Positions 5,218 to 55,117 of a stretch of DNA of 57,828 bases are shown piece after piece. The stretch comes from Saprospiraceae bacterium (lineage in GTDB: Bacteria > Bacteroidota > Bacteroidia > Chitinophagales > Saprospiraceae). Each line of letters opens with the position of its first letter. Positions within the stretch are counted from its first letter, which is position 1. Location: contig JAHDBF010000003.1 in the NCBI GenBank assembly GCA_020630525.1, forward strand, positions 1-57,828. Reading direction: 5' to 3'. The translations under genes were made by a program, and so were the position numbers. The notes under the pieces are model-generated. The model saw nothing but the letters and a program-made list of their open reading frames with translations. It had not been told where the DNA came from and did no database searches.

Positions 5218-5299
5218 ATTTGATCCAATGTTAAATTCGGTTTGAACCAGTTTCAATCTTGAAAATTAATTTGGATTTTAGGCAAAACTTTAATTTCAA

Positions 5300-5328: not shown

Positions 5329-5399
5329 ATTGTATTAAAATGAAATTTGAATACAAAAGAGATACATTTGCGCGTTAATAGGATTATCTATTTACTTTC

Positions 5400-21579: not shown

Positions 21580-22046
21580 TCTATAGACTGACATTTAGAA
21601 CAAATGCCATAAAGATTTAAATTGTGATGTGTCACTTGGAATTTCATAAGATCACTCATCATAGTTTTAATATTCTGAATTCTTGGATCACAGAATTCCA
21701 TTACATCTCCGCAACTAGTACAAATCAAATGGTCATGCTGCTTGTATCCATAAGATTTTTCATACTTAGCTAAGTTTTCTCCAAACTGAAGTCTAGTTAC
21801 TAAGTCACAACTTACTAAAAGCTCTAAAGTATTATAGACCGTAGCTCTTGAAACCCGGTAATTTTGGTTTTTCATATGCACATAAAGGGCTTCCGCATCA
21901 AAATGGTCTGCGCGTTTATAAATCTCTTCTAAAATGGCAAAACGTTCGGGAGTTTTTCTGAGACTATTTTTTTCAAGATGAACAGTAAAAATAGTTTTTA
22001 CATCCTTGATTAATTTGTCTAATGTTTCTCCAGTAACTACTTCCAT
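21576..22046 (-). CDS. fur: Fur family metalloregulator (Fur/Zur/PerR; subfamily not resolved)
   Basis: [11 protein letters not shown] (DNA-binding helix), HDHLIC..CG...F and a C-terminal CSKC zinc site. It starts 4 nt downstream of the rel stop. Confidence 0.7.
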
Positions 22047-26833: not shown

Positions 26834-28066
26834 TTGAAAAATAAAACACAAGAGCATTGCTCATTTTGCGGAAAAAGTAAAAAAGAAACAGTAATTCTTA
26901 TTGCTGGAATAGAAGCACACATATGTGAATCTTGTGTTGGTCAGGCGCATGAAATTCTTGGTGAAGAAATGATTAGTCGAGCTCCAAAAACCGACGAGTT
27001 TGTCCTACCAGAATCTAATACGCCAAAAAAAATCAAAGAATATTTAGATCAATATGTCATCGGACAAGATGATGCAAAAAAACACCTCGCAGTTTCAGTA
27101 TACAATCATTACAAAAGATTGAATCAAAATGATGCTGACGATGTTGAAATTCAGAAGTCTAATATCTTATTTATCGGTTCGACAGGAACTGGAAAAACTT
27201 TAATGGCAAAATCTATAGCCAAACTTCTAAGTGTACCGTTTACCATTGTTGATGCCACTATATTTACCGAAGCAGGATATGTTGGCGAAGACGTAGAAAG
27301 TATGCTAAGTAGATTATTACAAGCCTGTGATTACAATGTAGAGGCTGCTCAAAAAGGAATTGTGTATATCGATGAAATTGATAAAATTGCAAGAAAAAAC
27401 GATAATCCTTCAATAACTAGAGATGTTTCTGGAGAAGGCGTTCAGCAAGCATTATTAAAAATGTTGGAGGGTACAGATGTTAATGTCCCACCACAAGGAG
27501 GAAGAAAGCATCCAGAACAAAAAATGATCAGAGTAAATACCAGTAACATCCTATTTATCTGTGGTGGTGCATTTGATGGAATGGATAAAGTGATAGCAAG
27601 ACGGTTAAATACTCAAGTAATCGGCTTTGATAAAAGTAAAACAGAGCATTTAGACAAAGAGAACATGATCCAATACGTAAATCATCAAGATTTAAAACGT
27701 TTTGGTTTAATTCCTGAGCTTATCGGAAGATTGCCAGTCCTGACCTATTTAAACCCATTAGATAAAGAAGCACTAAAAAGAATTTTAGTAGAGCCAAAAA
27801 ATTCAATTGTAAAACAATACAAGAGATTATTCGAATTAGAGAACAATCTTTTAGAATTTACACCTGAGGCATTAGAACTAATTGCCCAAAAAGCAATAGA
27901 TTATAGCTTGGGAGCAAGAGGCCTAAGATCGATCTGTGAAGCTGTATTAACTGATGCTATGTTTGAATATCCTTCCTTTAACGAAAGCAAAGAATTGGTC
28001 GTTACGGCTGAATATGTAGCCGATAAATTGGCAAAATCAAAGCTTCAAAAATTAAAAGTGGCCTAA
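26834..28066 (+). CDS. clpX: ATP-dependent Clp protease ATP-binding subunit ClpX
   Basis: Zinc finger CSFCGK...C..C, Walker A GSTGTGKT, Walker [10 protein letters not shown] and GARGLRS. TTG start. Confidence 0.95.
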
Positions 28067-28247
28067 AACCCATACTTCTAAGGCATTGATTTACAGTATT
28101 ATATACATATATCAACTACACATATAATAAAAATCAATATTTTTTTCTGTTTTTGTAATATTTGTAATCTTTTTTGTGAAGAATCCAATTCTTCTTGCAT
28201 ACCTTTACACTTAAATCAGTAAATAACCAAAACTCAAAAACAGTCTC

Positions 28248-31200
28248 ATGAAAAGAATCATAACCCTGACTCTTTTGCACATGTTGATAACTAACATGTG
28301 TTATTCTCAATGTCAGATCAGTTGTAATGATCTGATTAACATTTCTTTAGACCTAGGATGTGACGCCGAAATAACTGTAGATATGGTCTACGAAGGCAGT
28401 TATGATCCAGCTTGTAATTTCTTTGTAGTATTAGACGGGATCGGTGGAAACATGATCGATGCACCAGGCAATTATACTTATAGACTTTATAGCCCAGAAG
28501 GGAATTTTTGCTGGGGAGAAATCTTAGCAGAAGATAAAGAATTACCTGCGCCAAATTGTACTTGCGAATCCGCATTTATTGATAATGGTGCTGGTGTTTT
28601 AGTTCCAGACCCGAATTGTACATTTAGATGCTATGATGTTTGGGATTTAGAAATTTTAGAAGCCGATGGTGGTAATAATGAACTTTTACCTGATGTAGAT
28701 GATAATCTGCCATCTGATAATTGCCTTGTTTTCGATGATCCAGCAATCAATATTTCTATATTTGATGGAGCTAATTGTGAAGACAAAATAGTCAGAAGAC
28801 AGATCATTTATTCTTATCCTAATTGGGATGGAACAACTGGTTATGTAGAATGTAATCAGGAATTTTTATTTCAAAGCATTGATGTAGCAAGTTTAGGATC
28901 AACAACAGACGGTGTATGGCCAAACAACCCTGATGAAGGTAACTTTGACTATTATACACCACAAGAGTTTGTAGATATGCCTTGTGGGTCAGAAACTACT
29001 CCTGCTGCGATTGTCGCTCACTTTGATCTTGATACTCCTGGAAGACCAGCAGGAAAAGATAGAGACGATTATGATAATACACCAAATATTGTAGAATTCA
29101 ATGAAGGATATGCTTATGCTTACCCTTATGTTGTTGTTCAAGGATGGAGAGGAAACTATCATGCAAAACCTATTATCAATAACATTTGCAATATTTATGC
29201 AAGTTATACTGATGACAATATAGATGGTTGTGGTGTAGGCTGTAAAGGCAATGAAAAGGTTTTAAGAATGTGGACTATTTTAGATTGGTGTACATCTACT
29301 ACTTTAGAATTTACGCAAATAATATCGACAAAAGATATCGAAGCACCAACAGTAAGTCAAGGGGATTTAACTTATAGCGTAGATCCTTGGAGCTGTGCAA
29401 GAAATATTGAATTTCCAGCACCAGAACATTTACATGATAATTGTGATTCAGATTTATCTTATGGTATTATAGCACCTACAGGAATCTCAATTAATGGGAA
29501 TACTGCTTACGATGTACCAAAAGGTATACATACATTTTACTACACTGCAACAGATTGTTGTGGTAACGTTGGATCATCTGCTGTTCAAGTAAGCATAAAT
29601 GATCTTACTCCACCAACAGCAATTACAGTTGAGCACATTGTTCTTAATCTTACAAATGATGTTGATGCAGATGGTATTGCAAAATTATATGCACAATATG
29701 CAGATAATGGAAGCCACGATGGTTGTGGTCCTGTACACTTAGAGATAAGAAGAGTTGAGGATATCTGTGGATTTGTTGGTAATACAACATTCAATAATGA
29801 TAACCATTCTAATGATGATATCAATGATCCTGATGGTGGTGATTATGTAAAGTTCTGTTGTGAAGATGTAGATCCTACAAATATTGATTCTATCACAGGA
29901 AATGCATTTGGTGAAGTAGATGTAATACTTAGAGTTTGGGATGATGGTGATATGGATGGAACATTCGGTACTGCTGGAGATAATTATAACGAATCTTGGC
30001 TTACAGTAAGAGTTGAAGATAAATTAGATCCAATTGTAGTATGTCCGCCACATGTTATTATGGAGTGTGATGAAGATTTCTTAGATTACGATTTTACAGG
30101 AGTTCCTGTAGTATTCAATACTTGTAGTGAAGGTGTTTGTGAAATTACAGACAACAATCCTAGAGATCAATTCCAAAAGAAATCAACAAACGCACAACCT
30201 TTACAAGGTGTAGAAGTTCCTGCATATAATCCAAGTTGTAGATCTGGAGCTATCAAAAGAACATGGACTTGTGGAGAAAAGACTTGTGTACAATGGATTA
30301 TTGTTAATGAAGAGCCAAACCAAACTTTGGTTGTTGATTATCCAGAAGATCAAGAAGTTACTTGTAGCGACTTTGATGCTGGCGAACCAACTTATACTGA
30401 CCAACAATGTGAATTGATTGGAGTTAATATGGAAAGTGATACTTTCTTTTTTGAAGATGGTGCTTGCTTTAAAGTATTAAACCATTGGACAGTTATTAAC
30501 TGGTGTGATTACGATGCAGAAGATACGGATTTAAATGAGATTACAGAGCCAACTGATGATGGTGTTGTTCCTGGAATTTCAACGCATACTCAAGTGATCA
30601 AAATGGTTGATGATGTTAGACCAGAATTAGTAATCCAAGATACTTGTTTTGCGGTAACTGTTGACTGTACAAGCGAAAACCTAGTATTAAAAGCAACAGC
30701 AACGGATAACGGTGCTTGCGGAAGCCCATGGTTAAAGTGGGAAGTTGAAGTTGATGCTTGGTCGGATTGGGATGTTGATTGGACTTATAGCAGTTTCTTA
30801 CCTGCAGATAATGATTATTATATTAATCCAACCGCTGGTTCAGGGAGCTTCAGTGCACCTACAGCCAACGGAGAATCTGTTTGTATCGCATTACCTGATG
30901 GTATTCCAAGTGCTTGTGGATTACCGCACAGAGTGTTATGGAAAGTACATGATGGTTGCGGAAACACAACTACGGGAACTTCATACTTCACTGTGGAAGA
31001 TAAGAAAAAGCCTACACCATATTGCTTAAATCTTTCTACTGCATTAATGGTAGATGGTTCTGTAGAATTATGGGCTAGAGATTTCAATGCAGGAAGCTTT
31101 GACAACTGTACTGAGCAAGATTATCTTAAATATACTTTCTCTAGTGTTGTTCCTGCTCAGTTATTAGACGATTCATTAGATCCTTGGTATGATGCCGATG

Positions 31201-32630
31201 GAGAAGCTGATGAAGATGATTATTTGGAAGGTGATGCAGAACAATGGTTAGCAAGTTCTAACTCAAGTGCGAGAGTATTTGATTGTGATGATTATGCTCT
31301 AGCTTTGGCTAATGGAGGAATGTTACCAGTAGAGATTTATGCATGGGATGAATGTGGAAATTATGATTTCTGTGTAGTAAACTTAACATTAGTAGACAAC
31401 CAAGATATTTGCGGAATCGAAGGAAATAGAGCTATAGTTTCTGGTTCAATACTTACAGACAACGGTGCTCCAATATCAAACGTAGATGTTAATATTTCTG
31501 CGAATACTGAAGGTGGATACAATAATACAGTAACAACCAATAATATTGGTGAGTATGTCTTTACAGATGTTATTACAAATAACAGTTATTCAATTAATGG
31601 AGATAAGGATATTGATTGGATGAATGGTGTTTCTACATTGGATTTAGTATTAATTCAAAAGCATATTCTTGGATTAGAGAACTTTGATTCGCCATATAAA
31701 TTGATCGCAGCAGATGCTAACAATGATGAAAGAGTTTCTTCAATAGATTTGATTAGCCTAAGAAAATTAATTTTAGGAATTGAGACTAATATATCTGGAA
31801 ATACTTCTTGGAGATTTATGCCTTCTTCACTTTCTATGGATCCACAAAATCCTTGGAACTTTAATGAAAATATTAATATCCAAAACTTACTAGCTAATAC
31901 GCTCGAAGAAAACTTTATAGGTGTAAAAGTAGGTGATGTAAACTCAACAAATGATTTCGCCGCTGATGCAACATCTTTAAGAAGTACATCTTCTTTAGAT
32001 TTTAATATAAATGAAGTAAGAGAAAATGGAATTGTTACCCTAGAATTTAGTTCAACAAATTTCAATGATATTCATGGATTCCAATTTACTTTAGAAACTT
32101 CAAACCTTGAAATATTAAGTGTACATGCTAAAGGAATTGATCTTAATGAAAGTAATGTAGCAAACTTTAATGACAAGTTAAGTGTAAGTTGGTTTACTGA
32201 TAAAGCAAGATCATTAGATTCAGAAGTATTGTTTACAGTTACAGCAAATGAGTTGTCTACTGCAAGTACAAAACTTAACATAACTGATGCGATTACTGTT
32301 TCAGAAGCTTATGATTCTGCATATAATGTGTTAGATGTTAATTTAATAAATACTGTTGATGCAGAGTTTGCATTAGTATCTATTGAGCCGAATCCATGGA
32401 AAGAACAATCACAAATAATTTTTAATATTGATTCTGATAAAGAAGTTTCAATAACTATCTATGATACAACTGGTAAAACAGTGTATGAAAACAGTGATTT
32501 CTTCACCAAAGGATTAAACGCTTTTAACCTTAATGAAGGAGAATTACTTACTGATAAATCAGGTATTTTCTATTACACAATCTCTGATGGAACTCAGTTT
32601 TTAACAGCAAAAATGATAAAGATTAAGTAA
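28248..32630 (+). CDS. Giant secreted cysteine-rich HYR-like repeat protein B (1460 aa), T9SS cargo, paralog of A
   Basis: - Signal peptide MKRIITLTLLHMLITNMCYSQ.
- Same landmark order as A: CNDLINISLDLGCDAEITVDMV..CWGEILAEDK, LRMWTILDWCTST, SVDPWSC..PEHLHDNC, NGSHDGCGPVHLEIRR, FKVLNHWTVINWC, KKKPTPYC.
- CTD: IEPNPWKEQSQIIF..ITIYDTTGKTV..GIFYYTI. Confidence 0.85.
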   Translation: MKRIITLTLLHMLITNMCYSQCQISCNDLINISLDLGCDAEITVDMVYEGSYDPACNFFVVLDGIGGNMIDAPGNYTYRLYSPEGNFCWGEILAEDKELPAPNCTCESAFIDNGAGVLVPDPNCTFRCYDVWDLEILEADGGNNELLPDVDDNLPSDNCLVFDDPAINISIFDGANCEDKIVRRQIIYSYPNWDGTTGYVECNQEFLFQSIDVASLGSTTDGVWPNNPDEGNFDYYTPQEFVDMPCGSETTPAAIVAHFDLDTPGRPAGKDRDDYDNTPNIVEFNEGYAYAYPYVVVQGWRGNYHAKPIINNICNIYASYTDDNIDGCGVGCKGNEKVLRMWTILDWCTSTTLEFTQIISTKDIEAPTVSQGDLTYSVDPWSCARNIEFPAPEHLHDNCDSDLSYGIIAPTGISINGNTAYDVPKGIHTFYYTATDCCGNVGSSAVQVSINDLTPPTAITVEHIVLNLTNDVDADGIAKLYAQYADNGSHDGCGPVHLEIRRVEDICGFVGNTTFNNDNHSNDDINDPDGGDYVKFCCEDVDPTNIDSITGNAFGEVDVILRVWDDGDMDGTFGTAGDNYNESWLTVRVEDKLDPIVVCPPHVIMECDEDFLDYDFTGVPVVFNTCSEGVCEITDNNPRDQFQKKSTNAQPLQGVEVPAYNPSCRSGAIKRTWTCGEKTCVQWIIVNEEPNQTLVVDYPEDQEVTCSDFDAGEPTYTDQQCELIGVNMESDTFFFEDGACFKVLNHWTVINWCDYDAEDTDLNEITEPTDDGVVPGISTHTQVIKMVDDVRPELVIQDTCFAVTVDCTSENLVLKATATDNGACGSPWLKWEVEVDAWSDWDVDWTYSSFLPADNDYYINPTAGSGSFSAPTANGESVCIALPDGIPSACGLPHRVLWKVHDGCGNTTTGTSYFTVEDKKKPTPYCLNLSTALMVDGSVELWARDFNAGSFDNCTEQDYLKYTFSSVVPAQLLDDSLDPWYDADGEADEDDYLEGDAEQWLASSNSSARVFDCDDYALALANGGMLPVEIYAWDECGNYDFCVVNLTLVDNQDICGIEGNRAIVSGSILTDNGAPISNVDVNISANTEGGYNNTVTTNNIGEYVFTDVITNNSYSINGDKDIDWMNGVSTLDLVLIQKHILGLENFDSPYKLIAADANNDERVSSIDLISLRKLILGIETNISGNTSWRFMPSSLSMDPQNPWNFNENINIQNLLANTLEENFIGVKVGDVNSTNDFAADATSLRSTSSLDFNINEVRENGIVTLEFSSTNFNDIHGFQFTLETSNLEILSVHAKGIDLNESNVANFNDKLSVSWFTDKARSLDSEVLFTVTANELSTASTKLNITDAITVSEAYDSAYNVLDVNLINTVDAEFALVSIEPNPWKEQSQIIFNIDSDKEVSITIYDTTGKTVYENSDFFTKGLNAFNLNEGELLTDKSGIFYYTISDGTQFLTAKMIKIK
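31435..32627 (+). other. C-terminal cassette of protein B (CarboxypepD_reg-like, dockerin-like, cohesin-like, T9SS CTD)
   Basis: - CarboxypepD_reg-like: VSGSILTDNGAPISNVDVNI...IGEYVF.
- Dockerin-like, 31614-31822: DWMNGVSTLDLVLIQKHILG...AADANNDERVSSIDLISLRKLILGI...TSWRF.
- Cohesin-like: IHGFQFTLETSNLEILSV...VLFTVTA.
- CTD from about 32376. Confidence 0.6.
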
Positions 32631-32654
32631 TTTAATCTATTCAAATACTTGAAA

Positions 32655-32686
32655 AGGGTTAGCAGGAATCTGCTAACCCTTTTTTT
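32655..32686 (+). terminator. Rho-independent terminator after gene B
   Basis: Perfect 11-bp stem agggttagcag / ctgctaaccct, 4-nt loop, T6. Confidence 0.85.
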
Positions 32687-32724
32687 ATTAGATTGTTAAA
32701 AATTAAAAAAAATCGTAATATGTA

Positions 32725-32754
32725 TTTGATATTATAAAAATCTATATATATTTG
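32725..32754 (+). promoter_or_regulatory. Bacteroidota-type promoter for gene C (-33 TTTG and -7 TAnnTTTG)
   Basis: TTTG at 32725-32728 and TATATTTG at 32747-32754 (18-nt spacer), about 120 nt upstream of the ATG. Confidence 0.5.
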
Positions 32755-32790
32755 CCTTTAAGAAACTATATTTTGACCTAAAACCGATTA

Positions 32791-32813
32791 ATCCTTCCCA
32801 AGGATAATAGTAG
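32791..32813 (+). promoter_or_regulatory. Conserved leader motif ATCCT-N7-GATAATAGTAG (copy 1, gene C)
   Basis: The same motif with the same 7-nt spacing recurs at 44556-44578 in the leader of gene D (18 of 23 positions identical). Confidence 0.5.
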
Positions 32814-32874
32814 ACTTTGGCTGCAAGTAGCAATACTTGTGGTTTAGAATTTTACAATTTAATTAAAGGTCACA

Positions 32875-35800
32875 ATGAGAAAATTATGTCCACTGGCAAG
32901 TACCGCCTCTAGGTTTGGTATGTTATTGTCAATCTTGATGAGTGTATTTAGTCATACTATCTATGCTCAATGTCCATCGAATTCAGTTTCGGGTTCCGTA
33001 TTTTTAGATTCAAATTTGGATGGCTCCATCAGCCAGTCAGAACAGGGTTTATCTAATCTAATGTTAAATGCATATGATTCAGATGGAATTTTTGTTTCTA
33101 GCACCACTACTAATAGTGATGGTGAATATCAATTTTTGAATTTAGATTCTGGAAGCTATAGATTTGAACTTAGCTATACATCAAACTATAGTTCCTCTCA
33201 AATAGGAGAAAACCACAAATCTGTAATCCAATTTTCTCAAACTGGAAATTGTGATTTGCACTTTGGATTAAAAGAAGCTTCTATATCATGCGCATCCAAT
33301 CCAGATATCATGGTTACCTGTTTTGTAAGAGGTGACTTTAATGAAAATAGTTCTTATGCAACTATTGTAGGTTTAGAACATGATTTCGGACCGGCTTCTA
33401 ACGTTCAAGTGTACGCTACTAAACAAGAAACTGGAAGTATCTGGGGATTGTCCTCTAGACCAAGTAGAAATGAAGTTTATTCTTCCGCATTTGTTAAGCA
33501 ATACGCATCATTAACTCCTAGTGGACACGATGCGATCTTTAAAACGGACCTTACAACTGGGACGACTGCTCTATTTACAGAGCTTTCTTCTTTAGGAGTA
33601 AATACAGGAACACTTTCTGTAACCGATCCTATGGCTTGTAACTATGGTGCACAAGTTGGAAAATTTGGAATAGGTAATATTGCGGTTTCACAAAATGAAG
33701 AATCACTGTATGCCGTAAATTTATTCGACAACACATTAGTTAAGATTTCATTAGACAATCCGACTCCAGCAACAACATCTATTTATAATATTCCAAACCC
33801 AGGATGTACAGCAGGATTTCCAAGAGCTTTTGCATTGGAATTTCATAATGGTAAATATTATGTCGGAGTGACTTGTGATGCTATGGGGAGCAAAAATGAA
33901 AATGACTCTTCCGCAACAGTTTATGAGTTTAACCCTGCAAGTGGTTCATTTACACAAATATTTCAAACAAATTATATAAAAGGTTATTGGTTAGATAATC
34001 CTTCGGATCAATTCGTAACTTCTCATTGGTTAACAGATATTGACTTTACTGATGAAGGCAATATGTTACTTGCAATTACAGATCGTATTGGACATAGATT
34101 TTGTAATGCAAACACTGGAAGAATAGATCAGCAATACCCAGACCTTTTAGTTGTATGGAATGACAATGGAATTTGGAAATTAGAGAGTAACGGAACAGCA
34201 GGTCCTCTTTCTGGTACAGGAGTAGGTAATAACCAAGGTCCAAATGGTGGAGAATTTTTTGGCAACGACTTTTATGCAGGCGACCCTAATTATCATTCCG
34301 AAGTTGCACTTGGTTCTGTACTCGCATTACCTGGTACAGGAGAGGTAATTGCTTCAGTCTACGATCCATTATATAATACATATTCTGGTGGATTGCATAG
34401 ATATAAAACAAACAATGGTTCTCTAGTCAATATTAAAGAATTATACACGTATAATATCTCAGAATATTTTGGTAAATCAACGGGCTTTGGAGAGATAATT
34501 GCCCTATGCCCTAGTGCTTCTCCTGAAATAGGAAACTATGTATGGGAAGATGCAGATGGTGATGGTATACAAGATGCTAATGAAAAACCAATTTCAGATT
34601 TACCTCTTTTAATATTTGATAGAGATTGTAATGAATTGGGTTCTACTACTACGGATAGACATGGTAACTATTCATTTAATAATTCCAATGTTACAGGAGG
34701 GATATTGGCCAATACTCAATATTTTATTGCTATTGATCCAGTAATCTGTAATGAAAGTGCTAATGTGTATACACTTAATGGAGTAAACTACAATCCAACA
34801 CGCTCAAATGTTGATACTAATTTGGGATCAGATTTAATTAGCAACCCTGGAGTATGCCCAGAGCATATTAAGGGATTTTATCTACCTGTTAGCCTTGGAT
34901 CAGAACAATCAGTAGATCACAGTTATGACATTGGACTTCTTACTCCTAATGACTTTGATTTAGCTTTGATGAAAACTGTGGATAATGCTGACAATGTAAG
35001 ACTTGGTGATGAATTGACATTTTCAATAGAAATATTTAATCAAGGTAATATAGCTGCTGCCTCAGTAGAAATTACTGATTATATAACAGAGAATTTTGAG
35101 TTTAATCCATTAAATAATTTAGGATGGTCAGAAGTTGATGGTAATTTGAAATATACACATTCAGAAATATTAATTCCAGGTGCAAGCTTTACGGTTGATT
35201 TAAAATTAACGGTTGTTGATAACAATATTAAAGCTTTCGCAAATTATGCTGAAATATCAAATACTGTAGATCAATTTGGAAGTATAAATAATGACAATGA
35301 TTCTCATGCAGATGATAATCCATTAAATGATACAGGTGCAATTCCTAATACTAGTACTGATAATGAAATTTATGATGATGGTACAAATGATGAAGATGAT
35401 CATGATGTAGCTCAAATAAATGTTTTAGATATAGCATTGAGAAAAGTAGCTAGTAATACTAATCCATATACACCTTTAGATTTTGTTACATATAATATAT
35501 CAATTTTTAATCAAGGTAATGTTGATATTTTATCATACACAGTTGCAGATTATTATCCATCATATCTAGATTTTGACCCTGCTCTAAACCCTGGATGGAC
35601 TGATAACGGGAATAACGTATTAACCTATGATTATAACGGTTTACTGGCAATAGGCGAAGCAGTTTCTATTCCAGTTACCTTTCAAATAAATGGATTTGAT
35701 GAAAATGGCGAAATAAGAAATATTGCAGAAATAAGTGAGGTATCTGGAGGTTCACCTAATACAAGAGACTTTGATTCTAATCCAGACCAAGATATGAATA

Positions 35801-38800
35801 ATGATAATCTTGAAGATGATATGATTGATGATATGGGCGAAAATGATGAAGACGATCATGACATAGCAGTAATTACCAGCTTGAATATTGATCTCGCACT
35901 TATTAAAACTGTTGATCAATCTTTGGTAAGAAAAGGCGAAGATGTCTTGTTTACAATACATGTTATAAATCAAGGAGAAGTTACCGTAAAAGATATTGAA
36001 ATTGTAGATTATCTGCCAGAAGGGCTTACCTTAATTGACCCAAATTGGTCAGTAAACTCAGTTGGTGATAAAGCATTCAGAACAATCAATATTCCAAATG
36101 GTCTCGCTCCAGGAGAAGACGTGAATACCACAATTCTATTTAGAGTAAATCAAGATGCGGATATAAAAGTCTTAATAAACTTTGCAGAAATTTATACTGT
36201 AATTGATTTAGATGGTAAAGATGTTGGTAATTTTGATATTGATTCTAAACCTGATGACATAAAATCTAACGATAATGGTGGTGATCTAGGAGATATTTAT
36301 GATGACTTTACAAGAGGAAATGGTGAAGATGACGAAGATGATTCTGACCCTGCAAAAGTTTATGTCGTCGAATATGAAATTACTGAACCATGCATATGTT
36401 TAAATAATTCAACGACTACCTCTGATGGTCAATTTGGAGAAACCATAGTTGTAACAGCACCTTCAGCACAAACCTGGAATATTGATTATGTAAATGGACT
36501 ATTTGATAGTTCAAGCTCAGCTCCGCCAGCTATTCCTACGCCATTCGTAACAGGATTTAGTGGCTATTCATTATCAGAATTTCCACTTGGAACTGGATAT
36601 AGTGAATACACTTTAACAGGAATTCATATCGATGGTCAGGGATATGATATAAGGTTAGTAAACGAATTTGGATATTTCTTACAGATAAGTTCTGAAGGAT
36701 GTACCTATGCTGATGGAACTATTCAGTCAGAAGAAAATCCATTTAGTGCTTGTATTAATAGCACACAAACGTACGAAACAGAATTAGCACCAGGTTGTAT
36801 TGTTAATTGGACTTTATCTGGTGGTGGTGTAATATCAGGTCCTGCTAACTTAGAATCTGTAACCGTAGATTGGGGTTCTGTTAGAGGAAATTATACATTA
36901 ACTGCTAACTTGACTTGTCCATCGGATTGTGACAAACCAACTTTCATAAATGTTAATTTAGGTTCTGCTATTGGACCAATCGCATGTCATGGAGAATTAA
37001 ATGTTTCACTTGATGGTGATTGTTCTGTAGAGATAACACCAGAAATGGTATTATCAATTACACCAGATCCTTTTGCAGGTTATGGGGTAATGCTACTAGA
37101 TCCTCACGGTGATCCAATGCCTGATAATATTGTAACTGCTGCAGAAATCGGACAAGATTTAATGATCAAAATTATAGATGCTTGTTCTGGTAATTCTTGT
37201 TGGTCTACATTAACTGTTGAGGATAAATATGCTCCAGTAATCCAATGTGATGACATCACCATTGATTGTAATTCATTAAAAACGTATGAACCAATTGCAA
37301 ATGACAATTGCGGAACGGTCGATACTATAATTATGATTTCAGAAGTGGTAACACCTTATGATTGCCATCCTATTTATGTAAAAGAAGTCACGAGATCATA
37401 TATAGCAAAAGATTCTTATGGAAATACTTCTCAGCCTTGTGAACAAACAATTTATGTAGAAAGATTTGATTTTGATGCAATCGTTTGTCCACCAAACTAT
37501 TTGGTAAATCCAGAAGAAGGAGATTTACCAGCATTAGCTTGTGGTGATATCACATATAATGAAGATGGTACTCCAGATATTAGTATTACAGGAGTTCCAA
37601 CTTATTTTGGATGGGATATTTATCCTTTCCCCGACTATTATTGTAATGTTGGTATTGAATACGAAGATTACATAATTTCAGAAACAGGCTGTGTCAAAAA
37701 GTATATGAGAACATGGACTTTTTATGAAGCATGGTGTGGGATAGGAGAGTACGTTCAATGTACCCAAACTATAGAAATTCAAGATTTAGAAGCTCCAACA
37801 GTGGTTTGTGATTCTGATATTACTATTAGCACAAATGGAGAATCATGTGAGAGAACTGTAGAGCTACCACTGCCTACTTCTATTTCAGATGATTGTACGA
37901 CTGAGGGTTTTGTAATTGATATCGCACATCCAAATGGGTTTTTAGATAATGTAACTGGCAATGGAGATACATTTGTAACACTCTCTGCTGGAACACATAC
38001 GGTAACGTATAACGTATATGATGAATGTCAGAATTTATCAACGTGCACTGTCGATATTGTCGTAAGAGACGAGACAAATCCTGTAGCAATTTGTGATGAA
38101 TTTACAACCATTGGATTAAGAGGAGATGGCTCTGCTGAAGCTTATGCGTCTGTTTTTGATGATGGAAGTTATGATGATTGCAACTTGTATAAATCATTGG
38201 TAAGAAGGATGGATCATGACGTGGAATCTTGTCCTTGCGAAATACCTTACTTTTCTGATATGCATTATCTTGGAGAGTATGAAGGCCACTACTATTATTT
38301 ATCAAAATCAAAAATGCCAGGCTATAAAGCTTACTGGTATTCCAATGCAATGGGTGGGCACCCAGCAATAATAGAAACTGCAGACGAAGATGCTTGGATC
38401 AGAACTCAAGCAGATTCATTGATATCTGGTGATGAATATTATATTGGTTTAAATGATATTGATGAAGAAGGGACTTTTGTTTGGAATAACAATCTACCGT
38501 TAAATTATAATAATTGGAATGGAGGAAGTCCTGTAAATATTGAAGATTACGTTATCACTAATGCGGATGGAACATGGTCTGTCACAAGCGCTGCGAGAGA
38601 AGAGGCATACATAATGGAAGTTTCAGATAGATGTGGATGGAGCGAAAAAGTAAACTTCTGTTGTGCTGACTTAGGAACTGATCATATGGTAGTTTACAGA
38701 GTAGTAGACTATTTTGGAAACACCAATATGTGTATGGTGACTACTGAAATACAAGATAAAATTCCACCACAAGTTAACTGTCCTCAAGACCTACAAGTTG

Positions 38801-41800
38801 ATTGTGATTATGCAGTAGACTTTGCTCAATTAAACGAACTTTTTGGTGAAGCAACGGCTATTGATGCTTGTAATTCGTTATTGATTGAGTTGCCATATAT
38901 AGACAATAGAGATCAATGTGGTGTTGGAGAGATTAAGAGAACTTGGCAAACTGCTGATGCTAACGGATTCGATGTATGTGAACAAGTAATCACATTTGTA
39001 AATAATAATCCTTTTGATGGAGATAATATAGTTTGGCCTGAAGATTATACTTCTTATGAAGGTTGTAATACGGATAATCTACATCCTGATAACTTGGATG
39101 CCCCTTATGATTATCCTATTGTCGATGAACAATATTGTACTTTATTAGCAACAAGTTGGTCAGACGAATTATTCTTCTTTACTTCACCAGATGACAATGC
39201 ATGTTTCAAGTTATTAAGAACTTGGGAAATTATCGATTGGTGTACTTTAGATGAAAATGATTCTGATCTTAATGAATATGATGAAGCCTCAGACGATGGC
39301 ATTACACCAGGATATTGGAGATACCAACAAACTATTAAAATCAATGATGTTGTTCCTCCAACTATTACAGGATGTGAAGATATTGAGGTATGCACATTTG
39401 AATGCGACGGCGGTGATGTAACTCTTGTTGCAGTCGGTGACGATACATGTACTCCAGATGACATTCTTAATAATTCTTATGAAATAGATTTTGATTCTGA
39501 TGGAATAGTTGATTTAACAGTTCCAGGAATTGGAAACGAAATTGTTGCAACAGGATATTATCCAGTAGGAGAGCATACAATTTTATATACTTTCGAAGAT
39601 GGATGCGGAAACATGAATTCATGTTTAAAGAGATTTACAATCAATAATTGTAAGCCCCCAACTGCAGCATGTATAGAAGGATTATCAATTGGATTAGAAC
39701 CAATGGATCTTGATGGCGATGATATTCCTGATACAGAAATGGCATGCGTATGGGCAGAAAGTTTTGATGCAAGTAGTTTACACCCTTGTGGATATGATAT
39801 AACAATTGTATTCTGTGATGACCCTGCGAATCCAGATTTAAATGATACAGAAAAATGTTTTGACTGTACAGATTGTGGTACGCAAACGGTAAACATATGT
39901 GTCATTGATGAATTTGGAAATGTAGATTTCTGTGTGACAACAATAGAAGTTCAAGACAACAATGATGTGGACTTCTGTCCAGATCCTGCAGATTGTATAA
40001 TTGCACCTAGCGCACCAGTAATTGCTGCATGCGAAACTAATTTTGATCCATCTAACATTGGAGGAATTCCTACTATTGATCCAAATTGTTTCTGCGATGA
40101 AAGTGAATTTGATATTTCATTTAATGATGTTATTCAAGATCCATCAAGCGATCCAAATTGTGTAGGTATAATAAGAACATGGACAGTGACTCCTAACTGT
40201 GGCTGTATTGGAGAACCAGCCCAATTTGTTCAAGAGATTGAAGTTATGGATTTTGTTTCTCCTGTAATTGCATGTGCACCTGATATTTTAGGAGTTTCTG
40301 CTAATGCAAATTGCGAAGCTTTTGTTAATGTTCCTGTTCCTGTAATTTTCGGAACTTGTAGTTCTAATCTGACATTAACACATAACTCAATATTCGCCAC
40401 TAATCCAACTGGCAATAACGCAAGCGGAACATATCCAATTGGAGAAACAAATGTAGTTTTTACGGTAGTTGATGCATGTGGAAATCCTAATTCATGTACT
40501 ATTATGATTGAGGTCGTGGATGATACGGCTCCAGTATGTAATGTGGATAATATATCCGTAGAATTAGATGAAAACGATATGGCTGTAGTTAGTGTCAATG
40601 ATTTTGAAAATGGCAGCTCTGATAACTGTTCTGATAATGGAGATTTAACTTTTACTTTCCAAGATGCAAGTAATACGATGACAGTTGATTGTGCTGATAT
40701 CGGTAATACAACAGTAACTATTATAGCTACTGATGAAGCAGGTAATATGACAAGCTGTACAGCTACTTTAACAGTTACAGAATTAACAGACCCTGTATGT
40801 AACTTTGTTGCAGAATTTGATGCTGCTCCAATTACAGTTGCAAATGGGAATGTAACGGTAGATGTATCTGATTTAGATTTAGGAACAAGTGATAACTGTA
40901 CTGCAGTAACTTTCAATCCTACAAGCTTTACATATAATTGTAGTGATTTAGGAGCGAATATGGAAACAATTACAGTTAGTGATCTTAACGGAAATAGTAC
41001 GCAGTGTCCTGTAATTATTAATGTAACGGACTTAGTTGCTCCGACATGTGATGTTCCTGATATTACTGTAGACGTAGCTGGTAATTCATACACTGTAACA
41101 ATAAGTGACTTTGATGTGAGTTCTGCTTCAGATGGTTGCGGATCAGAAATTATAGAATCATTTACACCTGTGACTTTTGATTGTAGCGATGTAGGAAATA
41201 CTGTATCGGCAACTGTTTTTGTTACAGATGAAAATGGAAATATGGGTCAATGTAATCCTACGATTACAATTGAAAATACAGGAATGCCAACATGTAATTT
41301 TGTTGCAGAATTTGATGCTGATCCTATTACCGCTGCCAATGGCTCAGTTACGGTTCTTGTTTCTGACTTAGACTTAGGGTCTGATGATCCTTGTAATGTA
41401 TTAACTTATGATCCGCTTTCGTTTACATTTGATTGCGATGACATTGGAGCTAACACAGAAACCATCACTGTAAGTAATGCTAGTGGGGTGAGTACGCAAT
41501 GTACGGTTATTATTAATGTTTCTGATCAAGTTGCCCCTACTTGTAGCGTACCAGATATTACTGTTGATGTTCAAGGAAATGAATATACTGTCACTATTGC
41601 AGACTTTAATGTTGACTCAGCCTCAGATGCATGTGGTACAGAAATTACAGAGTCGTTTGATCCAATAACATATGATTGTGATGACTTAGGTCAGACATTT
41701 ACAGTCGCAGTTATCGTTACAGACGAATTCGGTAATCAAGGTCAATGTAATCCTACTGTTACTATTATGGATAGTGCAATGCCGATTTGTAATATAGTGG

Positions 41801-44394: not shown

Positions 44395-44427
44395 GAGAAA
44401 CTAAAGGCTAAATTGTAAAGTTTGAAT

Positions 44428-44464
44428 TGCAGGACCCATATTATTTGGGTTCTGCATTCTTTTA
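44428..44464 (+). terminator. Rho-independent terminator after gene C
   Basis: Stem tgcaggaccca / tgggttctgca (one G.U pair), 7-nt loop, T-rich tail. Confidence 0.75.
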
Positions 44465-44509
44465 TTAAAATATTTTTGTATTTATTAGGTTCTTTATCAC
44501 AAATATTTA

Positions 44510-44517
44510 TATATTTG
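44510..44517 (+). promoter_or_regulatory. Candidate -7 promoter box (TAnnTTTG) for gene D
   Basis: TATATTTG lies about 100 nt upstream of the ATG at 44616. No well-spaced -33 TTTG was seen. Confidence 0.4.
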
Positions 44518-44555
44518 TAAATGTTTAATATGTACTATGGCTCTTAATCAAAGCC

Positions 44556-44578
44556 ATCCTCCACTGAGATAATAGTAG
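44556..44578 (+). promoter_or_regulatory. Conserved leader motif ATCCT-N7-GATAATAGTAG (copy 2, gene D)
   Basis: See copy 1 at 32791-32813. The 11-mer GATAATAGTAG is identical, as are the ATCCT and the spacing. Confidence 0.5.
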
Positions 44579-44615
44579 TCCTTACTATTTATTCAACCTA
44601 TTTAATCAATTAATC

Positions 44616-51005: not shown

Positions 51006-51067
51006 TCATTTATACAGCTTACGTTCTTTATAAATACGGAGATTGGTTTATTAACAAATACTTGAGT

Positions 51068-54000
51068 ATGCACATGAAAGTTAAATTTTTTGTCAGCTTA
51101 TTCCTTTCAATAAGTAGCGCTTTCATGTGCTGCGCTCAAGGAACTACCCAGTTCTGCGCACACACTAAAACACTCAATTATTGCGACCAATCTAATACAG
51201 CACAAATACAATTAAATCCATCAGGAGGTACTGGTGTTTACGATTATCAATGGTCTCATAATAGTGGATTACAGTCTAATATTGCAAATGACTTAATAGA
51301 TGATCTTTACAGTATTACGGTTACAGATACTGAAGGATCGTTTGCTGTTTGTTTAATAGATATTTCAAGTCCATCCTCAATTGATATTATTGATTTGGAT
51401 TATGAAAATCCAAGTTGCGGAGAGAAAAATGGAAGTATTCATATCATTGTAGAAAACCCATCTGCCGATAATATGTTCAGTATTGATGGAGGTATAAGTT
51501 TTCACACGTCAAGCAGTTTTTTAGAATTACAAGTAGGTACTTATGATATAGTGGTTAGAGATATTAATGACTGTATAGATACTACACAAATTATTCTACT
51601 GCAAGAAAATCCTTTCACAGCAATTGCTAACAATATTGATTGTGCAGATGATCAAGTTACAATTGATCTGGAATTGAATCCTTCAAATGATTCTTATTCA
51701 TACAATTGGGAAGGTCCTAATGGATTTGTTTCCTCATCGCAAGATATTGTCAATGGTCCTTTAGGAATCTATGTGGTTACAATTACCAATAGCGAATCTT
51801 GTGAAGTAATAACAGGATTTGTCAAAGAGGATTGTTGCAATTCTTCTCAGTTCTGTAATGCAGAAATTAATAACAATAACTGTATTCAAGATCATAATGG
51901 AAGTATAAGGGTAACACCAATAGGAGGAGTCGGACCATACATTTTTTCTTGGTCTCATGATAATAGCTTAAATAGTTCGGCAGTCTCTGGTTTAAAAAAT
52001 GGAACATATACAGTTACCGTTACAGATGCTGTGCAGTGTAGAGCTATTTGTACATATGTAATTCAAGATATTGATGTAACAGAAGTTGTTTCAATCCAGA
52101 ATACCTTGACTGATTGTGAACAGTCTTTATATGATGTTATAATTAATGCCTCAAATTCAAACAACAATTGTAAATTAGAATTTAGTATTGATCAAGGAAA
52201 TAGTTATCAAACGATAAATACATTTAATGATGTTGTGCCTGGTAAATATCAAGTTTTTATTAGAGATTGTCACGGATGTATAATTCAAGAAGATGTCGAA
52301 ATTGATCATATTCCTGTCGAGTTTAATTTTGGAACTTCATGCAATAGTGATGGGTCCATAAATATTGATTTAGAACCAGAAGGATTGCCGCCATTTTCTA
52401 TTCAGTGGTTTGGTCCAAACGGATTCAATTCTGATGATGAAGACATCGTAAATGCGTCCCCTGGAACTTATACAGTAAATATAATCGATGCTAATAATTG
52501 CACTAACTTTACTTCTGTAACGCGCAGACCGTGTTGCGAGGTAGATTTATTTTGTGAGGCAAATCTGATTGGTCCAATATGTGATGAAGATAATAGTGGA
52601 ATAATTTCTGTATCTCCTTCTGGTGGTGAAACTCCATATAATTATTTCTGGGCGCATGATAATACGTTAAATTCTGCAGTAGCAACAAATTTATTATCAG
52701 GATCATATACGCTTACCGTTGTAGATGCAAATGGATGCCAGTCTTTATGTGACTTTGAGCTAGAATCAGAGAAAGATATTTGTTGCGAACTTTCAGTGGT
52801 TTGTCCATCGAGCATAGGACCATTCGCTTCAATAGAAGAAGTGCCGATTATTCCTGCTGAATTTCTAGATGATTTGCCTGAGTTAAACGGTATTACTGAT
52901 TGGGCAATATTTGAATCCTTGGACGGAAGTATAAGTATAGATTTCCCACCTTGTGGTGATGTAGTCATTTCTGCTTTTGAAAATGTTTCTGGCAATGGCT
53001 GTTTAGATAATCCATATGTTATAAAAAGAACTTTTGCCATAGCAGATGAAGAAACAGAAACATTTTGCTCACAAAATATTACCGTAGATCCAATTGATTG
53101 CGATGCAGTCGGCTCTATCGGTGATTTTGTATGGCACGATTTAAATGGTAATGGTATTCAAGAGATTAATGAAGAAGGCATTCAAAACATTGCGGTTAAT
53201 TTATATACCGAAAATGGATTTTTAATCCAATCGACATTTACGAATTCATCAGGAAATTATCTTTTTGAAAATATTTCTATAGGAAATTATTATTTAGTTT
53301 TTGTCATTCCAGAATCATATGAATCCACCTTGCCGAATGCATTAAATCCAGATTTAAATAGTGATGTAGATGATACTTTTGGTGACGGTTCTACAAGGTT
53401 ACTTGAAGTTGTAGGTACTGATAGAATTGATATTGACTTAGGGTTATATATGTGCATACCTGTAGGTGATAGAATCTGGTTTGATATTAATGGAAATAAT
53501 CAATATGATGATTCCGAGAACGGAATAAATGGCATTTCAATTGATATTTTTAAGCAAAACCAAAGTGGCACTTTTGATTTTTACGAATCGTTAACTTCTG
53601 GGATTAATACATCAGGTAGTGCTTCGCCTTCTGATGATGGTTATTTCAAAGCATGTGTTTCACCTGGAACTTACTACTTGCAATTTGATATGCCTCCTTT
53701 TGGATTGGTTTCTGCTATTCCAAATATCGGAAGCGAAGAAACGGACAGTGACGTTACAGATATAAATGGCCCTCAAACAACACACAGTTTTACTGTAATG
53801 TCAGGAGAGGAAAAATGTGATATTGGTGCAGGATATTATGCTATGGCATCATTGGGAGATTTAGTTTGGATTGATACCAATGGGAATGGCATGCAAGATA
53901 TTGGTGAGGAAGGATTAGATGGGGTAACTGTTTGTCTGATAGACGGATACACCGATCAAGTGATAGCTACTCAAGTAACAGCCAACGGCGGGCAGTATTT

Positions 54001-55117
54001 ATTTGAATATTTATCACCAGGAGATTATTATTTGCAATTTAAAGCACCTGAAGGATATGAGTTAACCACTGCAAATAATGCTGAACAAGAAATGAATTCT
54101 GATGTAAATCATGAAAACGGAGACAATACCACACGCATGTATACGCTTGATTCAGGGATGACTTTAATGTCAATCGATGCTGGGTTTTTACCTTTGTCAA
54201 ATACAGCGTCGCTTTCTGGATGTGTTTTTGATGATCGAAATTTTAATGGTGTTTTCAACTTGGATGAGTTTGGAATTAATGATGTAGAGGTATTCTTAAT
54301 AGATGCCGAATCGGATTCTATAGTATCGAGCACAGTAACAGATATTCTCGGTAAATATTTTTTTGAAGAGATAATGCCTAATGATTATTACTTGTTATTT
54401 GATCCTCCTGGAATCTATACTGCTACAGAATTAACTATTCAAGATCCAATGAGTACAGATTTAAACAATGTAAATGGAGAGAATACAACTTCAGTTTTCA
54501 GTCTGGAAGCTGGTAGTAATCTTAATAGTATTCTTGCGGGATTCACCATTAATGTTACTGTCGCAGTAAATTGGATTAGCTTTTCTGGTGTTAATGATAA
54601 TAATAAAAACATATTAAATTGGACTGTTGCAGATGAAGTAAATGTTTCTCATTACGAATTAGAAAGAAGTATTGATGGGAATTCTTTTTCTATTATTGGT
54701 AAGCAAATTGCCACTGATGAAATTGGTGTAAAAAATTATTCTTTTGTTGATTATAATATAGAAGATGGGGTAAACAACTATTACAGAATAAAGCAAATAG
54801 ATTTAGAAGGAAAAAGTAATTATAGTTCAATCATTTCTATAAAATCTGATATCAAGAAATTAGAGATGAACGTTTTTCCTAACCCTACCGCTGATTTAAT
54901 TAACCTAGAACTATCTTTGGCCTCTCAGGAAGAAGTTAAAATTAAATTTTTAGATCAAATTGGAAATGAGATAATATTAGATGGATTTAAAAATGGTATT
55001 TTGTCATCAGGAAAAAATATTTTCTATTATAATTTGAGTGAATTATCAAGTGGTGTATATTTCGTAGTATTAGATTATGGAGATGGAAAAAGCACACAAA
55101 AAATCATTAAAATATAG
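51068..55117 (+). CDS. Giant secreted SprB-like / SdrD-B repeat protein E (about 1350 aa), T9SS cargo
   Basis: - The track ORF starts at TTG 51062; ATG at 51068 or 51074 gives the signal peptide MKVKFFVSLFLSISSAFMCCAQG.
- It lies only 56-62 nt after the gene D stop with no terminator between.
- The CTD starts at about 54860: LEMNVFPNPTADLINLEL..IKFLDQIGNEI..GVYFVVL..QKIIKI. Confidence 0.9.
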   Translation: MHMKVKFFVSLFLSISSAFMCCAQGTTQFCAHTKTLNYCDQSNTAQIQLNPSGGTGVYDYQWSHNSGLQSNIANDLIDDLYSITVTDTEGSFAVCLIDISSPSSIDIIDLDYENPSCGEKNGSIHIIVENPSADNMFSIDGGISFHTSSSFLELQVGTYDIVVRDINDCIDTTQIILLQENPFTAIANNIDCADDQVTIDLELNPSNDSYSYNWEGPNGFVSSSQDIVNGPLGIYVVTITNSESCEVITGFVKEDCCNSSQFCNAEINNNNCIQDHNGSIRVTPIGGVGPYIFSWSHDNSLNSSAVSGLKNGTYTVTVTDAVQCRAICTYVIQDIDVTEVVSIQNTLTDCEQSLYDVIINASNSNNNCKLEFSIDQGNSYQTINTFNDVVPGKYQVFIRDCHGCIIQEDVEIDHIPVEFNFGTSCNSDGSINIDLEPEGLPPFSIQWFGPNGFNSDDEDIVNASPGTYTVNIIDANNCTNFTSVTRRPCCEVDLFCEANLIGPICDEDNSGIISVSPSGGETPYNYFWAHDNTLNSAVATNLLSGSYTLTVVDANGCQSLCDFELESEKDICCELSVVCPSSIGPFASIEEVPIIPAEFLDDLPELNGITDWAIFESLDGSISIDFPPCGDVVISAFENVSGNGCLDNPYVIKRTFAIADEETETFCSQNITVDPIDCDAVGSIGDFVWHDLNGNGIQEINEEGIQNIAVNLYTENGFLIQSTFTNSSGNYLFENISIGNYYLVFVIPESYESTLPNALNPDLNSDVDDTFGDGSTRLLEVVGTDRIDIDLGLYMCIPVGDRIWFDINGNNQYDDSENGINGISIDIFKQNQSGTFDFYESLTSGINTSGSASPSDDGYFKACVSPGTYYLQFDMPPFGLVSAIPNIGSEETDSDVTDINGPQTTHSFTVMSGEEKCDIGAGYYAMASLGDLVWIDTNGNGMQDIGEEGLDGVTVCLIDGYTDQVIATQVTANGGQYLFEYLSPGDYYLQFKAPEGYELTTANNAEQEMNSDVNHENGDNTTRMYTLDSGMTLMSIDAGFLPLSNTASLSGCVFDDRNFNGVFNLDEFGINDVEVFLIDAESDSIVSSTVTDILGKYFFEEIMPNDYYLLFDPPGIYTATELTIQDPMSTDLNNVNGENTTSVFSLEAGSNLNSILAGFTINVTVAVNWISFSGVNDNNKNILNWTVADEVNVSHYELERSIDGNSFSIIGKQIATDEIGVKNYSFVDYNIEDGVNNYYRIKQIDLEGKSNYSSIISIKSDIKKLEMNVFPNPTADLINLELSLASQEEVKIKFLDQIGNEIILDGFKNGILSSGKNIFYYNLSELSSGVYFVVLDYGDGKSTQKIIKI
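51134..52790 (+). repeat. About 2.4 copies of a 699-nt (233-aa) three-domain supermodule containing SprB-like repeats
   Basis: - QFC at 51149 and again at 51848 (offset exactly 699 nt); CC..C boundaries at 51833 and 52532.
- Each copy starts with NGSI...P.GG.GPY.Y.WSH...L..G.Y.VTV.D..GC.
- Copies 1 and 2 then carry a FSID.G.S.. domain and a W.GPNGF.S...DIVN...G.Y.V.I domain. Confidence 0.75.
53111..54546 (+). repeat. Four SdrD B-like (Cna-B-type) repeats in protein E
   Basis: Repeat heads are GDFVWHDLNGNGIQE, GDRIWFDINGNNQYD, GDLVWIDTNGNGMQD and SGCVFDDRNFNGVFN. Each is followed by ..G.Y.F..(L/I).PG.YY(L)(Q/V)F and ..DSDV.. Confidence 0.75.

Follow-up and report, generated by a model that had tools for sequence, protein, structure and literature searches.

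Does a run of giant genes for surface proteins encode the parts of one machine, or a collection of separate adhesins that happen to share a framework? The question is raised by a Saprospiraceae bacterium (GenBank assembly GCA_020630525.1, contig JAHDBF010000003.1), of which a stretch of 57,828 nucleotides (nt), hereafter the window, was analysed. Between clpX and a DUF4403 gene, the window holds four consecutive genes, termed B, C, D and E, for very large predicted cargo proteins of the type IX secretion system (T9SS), and a further gene, A, lies at a distance from this array. An earlier reading of the letters without database searches (the sequence-only reading) had regarded the products as a single functional unit, a multi-component fibre or brush for adhesion or capture. 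The analysis described here leans, with somewhat better than even confidence, to a different answer: the array would be a diversified set of independently transcribed T9SS surface adhesins with a common stalk typical of the lineage, and not an obligate multi-subunit machine. This answer is preferred to a hetero-assembly because the shared C-terminal cassette occurs throughout the lineage, the face of its dockerin is nearly invariant, its cohesin-like domain is poorly conserved, the modelled single chain is compact, the genes form three transcription units and accessory genes are missing.

The array and the architecture of its products

The genes in question are the following (lengths in amino acids, aa):

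1015..5217, + strand, gene A, 1400 aa, unlinked family member distant from the B-E array
28248..32630, + strand, gene B, 1460 aa, minimal member of the chassis family
32875..44394, + strand, gene C, 3839 aa
44616..51005, + strand, gene D, 2129 aa
51062..55117, + strand, gene E, 1351 aa

A scan for open reading frames (ORFs) reproduced exactly the coordinates, lengths and common + strand of B, C, D and E given by the sequence-only reading, together with their intergenic gaps of 244, 221 and 56 nt. Two antisense ORFs inside C, at 40230-41093 (- strand, 287 aa) and 41943-42422 (- strand, 159 aa), are most likely spurious.

A, B, C and D share a chassis of ~1400 aa that consists of ~10 immunoglobulin (Ig)/cadherin-like domains, a beta-sandwich, a dockerin, a cohesin-like domain and a C-terminal sorting domain (CTD); the beta-sandwich, dockerin and cohesin-like domain are referred to below as the cassette. 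Pfam and NCBIfam searches recognised HYR, HYR_4C, SdrD_B, DUF11, DUF7507, Lectin_C, SprB, CarboxypepD_reg and Dockerin_1 modules, with HYR and HYR_4C in B, C and D, and CarboxypepD_reg and Dockerin_1 in A, B, C and D. The HYR, SdrD-B, DUF11, C-type lectin, SprB and dockerin modules named by the sequence-only reading were thereby recovered, and the cohesin-like domain is recognisable by fold and through homologues, not by Pfam.

B contains little beyond the chassis: a signal peptide, ~10 Cys-rich HYR-like Ig/cadherin-like domains, the cassette and a type A CTD. C begins with N-terminal adhesin modules (CarboxypepD_reg, two SdrD_B, two DUF7507 and three DUF11), continues with duplicated chassis segments into which a C-type lectin-like domain is inserted, and closes with cassette and CTD. 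D places ~860 aa of additional HYR-type Ig modules in front of a complete chassis with cassette and CTD, and its last ~1260 aa correspond to the whole of A or B. The paralogues have diverged considerably: A and B are 36% identical end to end, and identities among A, B, C and D range from 28 to 40%. The lectin-like insertion in C is located as follows:

38347..38601, + strand, C-type lectin-like domain of C (aa 1825-1909), Lectin_C 24.3 bits, cutoff 22.6

A motif check detected neither the EPN/QPD nor the WND sugar/Ca motifs in this domain, which is kept in P0308, a C orthologue at locus L082 (see below).

E is built differently. It contains SprB repeats (PF13573, 64 bits), four SdrD-B domains and a type A CTD; it has neither the chassis nor the dockerin/cohesin cassette, and it shares with C only an SdrD_B-type module. 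Judged by its domains, E is an unrelated SprB/SdrD-B cargo protein outside the chassis family. The proposed family of five is therefore reduced to four, A, B, C and D, plus the unrelated cargo E; the recognition of A at 1015-5217 as a relative, and of a chassis and cassette common to four members, proved correct. Homologue searches with E retrieved 2916 generic SprB/SdrD-B proteins across Bacteroidota, the best being 34% identical over 42% of the query. E was rejected as a conserved partner of the other genes, because its homologues are generic and include no close orthologue, and only locus L081 has an E-like gene in position.

The conserved core could in principle hide an enzymatic or toxic activity, which would make the array a polymorphic effector cluster. 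Family members with N-terminal enzyme-like fusions do exist (among them L001/L002 2445-9677, 2410 aa; P0045, P0056, P0060 and P0062), their additional domains being vanadium-haloperoxidase-like (VCPO_2nd/DUF6851) or P_proprotein (PF01483), so in other genomes the chassis can bear enzyme-like heads. In addition, many Asp, His and Cys residues are invariant across the family. Against this, no catalytic or toxin family was found in the array proteins by Pfam or NCBIfam, nor any transport family, as the sequence-only reading had stated, and the ORF scan revealed no immunity-like small ORFs between the array genes. The AlphaFold2 (AF2) model of the B body (residues 21-1060, from a 42-sequence alignment) is nearly all-beta, with a predicted local distance difference test (pLDDT) value of 79.6 and the low predicted template modelling score (pTM) that is expected of a rod-shaped model. 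Its Foldseek matches are Ig/cadherin strings (Nup210, the GhpA neck (9flp), desmocollin, protocadherins, contactins, DSCAM and SraP), structural matches that are adhesion molecules only; with template modelling (TM) scores of ~0.12, the likeness is generic and not specific. In the model, the B body is a string of Ig/cadherin-like domains without an enzyme fold, and an effector role is very improbable.

Export signals

On inspection, the N-termini of B, C, D and E resemble Sec signal peptides, with a hydrophobic core, an A/S-Q motif and a Cys-rich mature start, in agreement with the earlier claim of a signal sequence in every product; that of D has an unusually long n-region. T9SS-type tails had been claimed for every product as well. 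B (35.5 bits), D (27.8 bits) and E (42.6 bits) exceed the cutoff of 23 for the T9SS type A sorting domain TIGR04183. The C tail, at 18.7 bits, remains under it yet aligns with the tails of its paralogues, and the isolated tail of A matches Por_Secre_tail with an E value of 5e-4. The domain of B is located as follows:

32388..32621, + strand, T9SS type A sorting domain of B, TIGR04183 35.5 bits

B, C, D and E are thus predicted Sec/T9SS type A cargo. Type A CTD cargo of other Bacteroidota can be either anchored or secreted, and the proteins might accordingly be released after CTD cleavage, as components of a matrix, sheath or biofilm or as soluble capture proteins, with the cassette cross-linking the matrix or re-binding cells. 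The composition of the proteins, of the Ca-binding type, Asp/Asn-rich (9-10% Asp) and Cys-rich (~3.4%), would suit stability outside the cell. The sequence fits anchoring equally, and a rod of Ig domains that bears binding modules at its far end is a typical form of anchored adhesin; release of the products is considered improbable.

The C-terminal cassette

The cassette lies directly in front of the CTD and was delimited in the three array members that carry it:

31395..32375, + strand, cassette of B (aa 1050-1376), CarboxypepD_reg-like beta-sandwich, three-helix dockerin, short beta extension and cohesin-like beta-sandwich
43150..44145, + strand, cassette of C, placed by alignment, Dockerin_1 22.4 bits
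49749..50756, + strand, cassette of D, placed by alignment, Dockerin_1 21.6 bits

The C-terminal 411 residues of B, comprising the cassette followed by the CTD, were modelled by AF2 with a pLDDT of 90.4 and a pTM of 0.74. In Foldseek, the best PDB matches of this model are two structures from Clostridium perfringens GH84C, the cohesin plus FN3 structure 2w1n (E 1.6e-8) and the cohesin-like domain 2jh2 (TMt 0.67, root-mean-square deviation 3.0). The dockerin is recognised by Dockerin_1 in A (26.5 bits) and B (25.6 bits) above the cutoff of 22.9, while C and D score just below it. A profile of the family finds many dockerins in the PDB, with E values from 2.9e-5 to 1e-2, and reaches the cohesin dyad 3l8q only at E 0.44. 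The second Ca loop has the canonical form DxNxDxxxxxxD, and the first is degenerate and devoid of a position-5 ligand; A, B, C and D are predicted to contain a dockerin with two Ca-binding EF-hand-like segments. Pfam Cohesin does not match A, B, C or D even at E<=10. It matches 12 of the 41 cassette homologues that were scanned; in P0393 (35.7 bits), the one homologue for which the location of the match was given, it falls at the corresponding place in the cassette. On this basis the cohesin-like domain is most likely a diverged true cohesin.

The three parts of the cassette are not equally constrained. The dockerin is its most conserved segment, with a nearly invariant face, and its coding stretch is the only one that can be aligned at the DNA level among A, B, C and D (65-84% identity). 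The cohesin-like domain is poorly conserved, with a column identity of ~0.4.

A search of 1.84 billion cluster representatives with a CTD-free profile of the cassette yielded 14,336 matches at E<=1e-3, and 6,059 remained at the stricter E<=1e-30. The 150 proteins listed have lengths between a few hundred and 6144 aa, and most of them have the cassette ~90-100 residues from the C-terminus. The best 144 matches comprise 20 proteins with a full chassis, 80 with a partial chassis and 44 without one, and the cassette-bearing clusters have many different N-terminal parts; look-ups of these clusters returned no informative names. Apparently standalone cassette proteins of ~440 aa were discarded, because each starts within an HYR module and probably stems from a truncated gene call. 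Two relatives are scaffoldin-like and made up of repeated portions of the cassette: P0367 (1193 aa) has five Pfam Cohesin stretches (170.9 bits) together with dockerins and no detected CTD, and P0361 (1389 aa) has several dockerins (74.6 bits) and a marginal match to a T9SS CTD (26.2 bits, cutoff 27).

These properties bear on a refined form of the single-unit view, in which B, C and D, perhaps joined by A and by further cargo with the cassette, form one multi-component surface structure through intermolecular dockerin-cohesin binding. Such a structure would take the form of daisy-chained fibres or of a cross-linked brush or lattice, anchored by the CTDs, and would be a non-enzymatic analogue of the cellulosome. 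In its favour, adjacent dockerin and cohesin-like modules are found in A, B, C and D alike, the dockerin, with its canonical second Ca loop, is the best conserved segment of the cassette and the sole stretch conserved in DNA among the paralogues, and scaffoldin-like relatives exist with five cohesin stretches or with several dockerins plus a CTD. However, the argument that a shared cassette marks one unit is weakened by the occurrence of this cassette across the lineage, in more than 6000 clusters, and the nearly invariant dockerin face gives no sign of paralogue-specific pairing. The poor conservation of the cohesin-like domain also speaks against binding between chains, and the pTM of 0.74 obtained for a single chain would fit packing within the chain and possibly self-capping. 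An assembly of this kind is possible but unlikely.

Transcription units

The signals between the genes had been described correctly by the sequence-only reading, which had noted strong terminators after B and C, a TAnnTTTG box for each of C and D, and none of the former between D and E:

32651..32691, + strand, intrinsic terminator after B, 15-bp perfect hairpin followed by U7, -22.7 kcal/mol, z -5.8
32747..32754, + strand, Bacteroidota-type -7 box TATATTTG upstream of C, exact TAnnTTTG
44424..44470, + strand, intrinsic terminator after C, hairpin of -20.4 kcal/mol, z -6.7, followed by a U-rich tail
44510..44517, + strand, -7 box TATATTTG upstream of D, exact TAnnTTTG

Neither hairpin was equalled in folding energy by any of 200 shuffles. 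A consensus terminator scan of 27900-33000 overlooked the terminator of B, which is evident in the sequence and its folding. The gap of 56 nt between D and E is unstructured, and these two genes are probably co-transcribed. Because B and C each end in a strong terminator, the locus is composed of at least three transcription units, B, C and D-E, which is a further point against an obligate assembly, as is the absence of the cassette from E. An exact TAnnTTTG box is also present upstream of A, at 886, and the box scan found none upstream of B.

The non-coding DNA 5' of C (32631-32874) is conserved in comparison with positions 14630-14908 of the orthologous locus L010. The conserved blocks are AAATTAAAAAAAAT(C/T)GTAATATG, the TATATATTTG box, ATTTTGACCnAAAACCGATTA and GAATTT(T)ACAATTT(T)AATTAA(A)GGTCA, a pattern that suggests a conserved promoter and 5' leader. 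The leaders of C (32803-32813) and D (44568-44578) have in common an exact 11-mer, GATAATAGTAG, preceded by TCCTyCC. It was dismissed as a shared leader element, since it is absent from the orthologous leaders and probably arose by chance.

Age and order of the array

Four loci of relatives preserve parts of the arrangement (identities are to the window):

L010 (uncultured Saprospiraceae), relA - tig - clpP - clpX - B orthologue - C orthologue, running off the locus; B 44%, C 49% over 2926 aligned residues, ClpX 78%, ClpP 82%, RelA 72%
L082 (MAG-65), C orthologue with Lectin_C, D-like gene and another giant gene, in another upstream context and lacking B; C 43% over 3010, D-like gene 39%
L081, D orthologue (C-terminal part), E-like SprB/SdrD-B gene and DUF4403; C-terminal part of D 49%, E-like gene 34%, DUF4403 44%
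L078 (8958-15019), CAP - A - DUF6089 - LysE; A 55%

Synteny in related genomes is thus found for clpX-B-C, for C-D and for D-E-DUF4403. The complete order B-C-D-E was shown in no single relative, the search for D in the L010 genome being swamped by HYR-repeat proteins. As each paralogue has its own positional orthologue, the duplications must be old, the copies individually retained and their order at least partly maintained. Recent duplication, gene conversion and horizontal acquisition were rejected as origins, given that only the dockerin stretch is similar in DNA, that no tandem DNA repeats were found in the array, and that its guanine-cytosine content and composition are uniform with the flanks, without any anomaly.

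A has a conserved neighbourhood of its own. In the window (282-6215) it is preceded by a CAP gene (282-800) and followed by a DUF6089 gene (5400-6215) and then LysE, as in L078; the CAP/SCP (PR-1-like) product is a secreted protein and the DUF6089 product an outer-membrane beta-barrel. Of the 80 loci fetched for the family, 7 have a CAP homologue no more than 10 kb away from a chassis gene. It is possible that A is functionally linked with CAP and DUF6089, with the barrel as a candidate anchor.

Size and distribution of the family

B has more than 200 homologues that align end to end at 35-50% identity; those that are annotated, all from Saprospiraceae metagenome-assembled genomes (MAGs), are called only 'T9SS type A sorting domain-containing protein'. 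When one genome of each species was scanned, more than 555 loci of the chassis family came to light, nearly all in MAGs of Saprospiraceae, Lewinellaceae or Chitinophagales, including bins assigned to Aureispira and Portibacter. Among cultured bacteria, Portibacter lacus has a C-type protein (GCM10007940_03120), and members of the family occur in Aureispira too. The best-sampled genomes have ~4-6 copies, counting the fetched loci alone. An alignment of 18 family members contains dozens of invariant Cys, Trp and Asp residues, which indicates a defined architecture and not a loose repeat protein.

Clustering is not the rule in this family. Single copies account for 56 of the 80 fetched loci; 23 have at least two same-strand copies within 10 kb, in differently composed arrays and other contexts, such as three members between a sigma-54 regulator/LOG gene and dnaK, and one has no such match. 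The many genomes with singleton members are a further argument against an obligate assembly of B, C and D.

Family contigs at L011, L063 and L069 are filed under MAGs of Alphaproteobacteria and Halioglobus (Gammaproteobacteria). Most likely these are Saprospiraceae contigs that were binned wrongly, and they are not taken as a sign of horizontal transfer.

A literature search found no description of the family, or of a dockerin/cohesin cassette combined with T9SS sorting in Saprospiraceae, which is not proof that none exists, and agrees with the earlier remark that the combination is not a described system. Database look-ups of the exact B protein and of Portibacter lacus P0329 returned no record.

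Comparison with known systems

Generic T9SS type A adhesins resemble the array products in having a Sec signal peptide, an Ig-like string, a TIGR04183 CTD and adhesin modules only, and they are often encoded in tandem arrays. A, B, C and D differ from them as a discrete family of ~1400 aa, conserved end to end and not made up of loose repeats, and by their fixed beta-sandwich/dockerin/cohesin cassette directly before the CTD. The chassis family and its cassette are without a name or a described function, whereas tandem giant T9SS adhesins are already known.

The cassette itself recalls cohesin-dockerin systems, such as GH84C (2w1n/2jh2) and the clostridial X-dockerin dyads and anchoring scaffoldins. 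The duplicated EF-hand-like dockerin segments are alike, the beta-sandwich precedes the dockerin in the manner of an X-module, and, as in anchoring scaffoldins, a predicted cohesin fold stands beside a cell-surface anchoring signal, with multi-cohesin relatives in existence. By analogy, the cassette resembles an X-dockerin dyad fused to an anchoring cohesin. The differences are considerable: the host is Gram-negative, the anchor is a T9SS CTD instead of an SLH domain or a sortase signal, and enzyme subunits are lacking. Furthermore, dockerin and cohesin are parts of one polypeptide, the first Ca loop is degenerate, the cohesin of the window proteins escapes Pfam, and any binding between the modules is putative. 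A cellulosome was rejected, as the window has neither a multi-cohesin protein nor a catalytic domain and scaffoldin-like proteins occur only among database relatives.

Closer in lineage is GhpA, the grappling hook of Aureispira, a genus of Saprospiraceae that is reported to encode a T9SS; the protein has 5898 aa, and downstream of its gene are ghpB and ghpC, homologues of PorP and PorE (bioRxiv 10.1101/2024.01.29.577165; PDB 9flp). Like GhpA, the array products are giant T9SS substrates of Saprospiraceae with a disulfide-stabilised Ig-like string. The array proteins are much shorter, their genes have no PorP/PorE-like neighbours, and a dockerin/cohesin cassette is not reported for GhpA. Foldseek aligns the B body with the GhpA neck at E 1.2e-13 and a TM-score of 0.12, which is a generic match, and phmmer searches of B and D against PDB sequences retrieved dockerins only and no GhpA chain. 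Orthology to GhpA was rejected on the grounds of the missing sequence match to PDB chains, the generic fold match and the lack of PorP/PorE-like neighbours.

E shares with SprB, the gliding adhesin of Flavobacterium johnsoniae, the SprB repeats and the status of a T9SS substrate. It differs in its type A CTD, without a match to the gliding-motility type B CTD, in the absence of an sprF/PorP-like neighbour and in its size (1351 aa versus 6497 aa); B, C and D have no SprB repeats at all. The CTD type, the missing SprF-like neighbour and the restriction of SprB repeats to E led to the rejection of SprB orthology. The MSCRAMM proteins SdrC/SdrD were discarded as relatives as well, since E scores 167.5 bits against an SdrD cutoff of 2500 in NCBIfam and only the B-repeat domains match.

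Adhesin set or assembly

As a set of adhesins, the products would be exported by Sec across the inner membrane and by the T9SS across the outer one, the CTD would be removed, and the new C-terminus would be attached to the cell surface or released. Assuming ~4 nm per Ig domain, the rods would measure from ~50 to >100 nm, and their distal modules could bind particles, polymers or other cells. The cassette, close to the membrane, would serve as a stalk stabilised by Ca, one that thousands of cargo proteins of the lineage share, and may allow cargo to associate. The array itself would go back to old tandem duplications, after which the binding parts diversified. Saprospiraceae abound in wastewater sludge, in marine particles and on algae; they live by attachment to other cells, filaments and polymers, and some prey on other bacteria by contact. 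To our knowledge, the surface proteins of this family are essentially uncharacterised except for the Aureispira grappling hook.

Several observations weigh against the adhesin set. The adhesin role is deduced from domain types only, attachment and release fit the sequence equally well, and no T9SS components are encoded in the 57.8-kb window. The conserved order and the retention of each paralogue, which also favour an assembly, exceed what a repertoire of variable adhesins would need and fit some functional coupling. A, B, C and D each carry both a dockerin and a cohesin-like domain, P0367 and P0361 give a hint of a cohesin-dockerin network among the cargo of the lineage, and together these features suggest real cohesin-dockerin networking among T9SS cargo. 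The proposed fibre or brush is weakened by the lineage-wide cassette, the singletons, the unrelated E, the at least three transcription units and the lack of accessory genes, and it is a less economical hypothesis than the adhesin set: the gene annotation of the window shows no assembly, anchor (PorP/PorE-type) or chaperone genes in or beside the array.

A bolder extension of the networking idea would have the X-like beta-sandwich/dockerin/cohesin cassette interlink thousands of T9SS cargo proteins of Saprospiraceae and related Bacteroidota, as a self-assembling Ca-dependent lattice or fibre chain. This is speculative and rather unlikely; if true, it would represent a non-enzymatic, outer-membrane-anchored counterpart of the cellulosome, in which B, C and D are co-resident blocks that differ in reach and heads.

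In either case, the locus brings to light a T9SS cargo family that is very large, has no name and keeps a fixed architecture, and a cassette present in thousands of proteins. If the cassette binds cargo to cargo, it would constitute a new organising principle for the surface of Bacteroidota and a compact, portable, Ca-dependent display module; if it is only a stalk, the array is one more case of tandem giant adhesins. Such arrays would not surprise a specialist, and the noteworthy part is the lineage-wide dockerin-cohesin-CTD cassette with its scaffoldin-like relatives.

Surroundings of the array

The genes that flank the array are housekeeping genes. Upstream are Fur, RelA/SpoT, tRNA-Leu and tig-clpP-clpX, and E is followed by an ORF of 155 aa and then by the DUF4403 gene. 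Elsewhere in the window, a smaller T9SS cargo gene is present at 7527-9101 (524 aa), with a Por_Secre_tail match of 28.2 bits and a body without a recognised domain. An ORF of 420 aa at 20317-21579 (+ strand) combines an ABC-3 metal-transporter permease with a DtxR-type Fe_dep_repr_C domain, an unusual permease-regulator fusion, and lies tail to tail with a Fur-family regulator gene at 21576-22046 (- strand), with which it overlaps by 4 nt.

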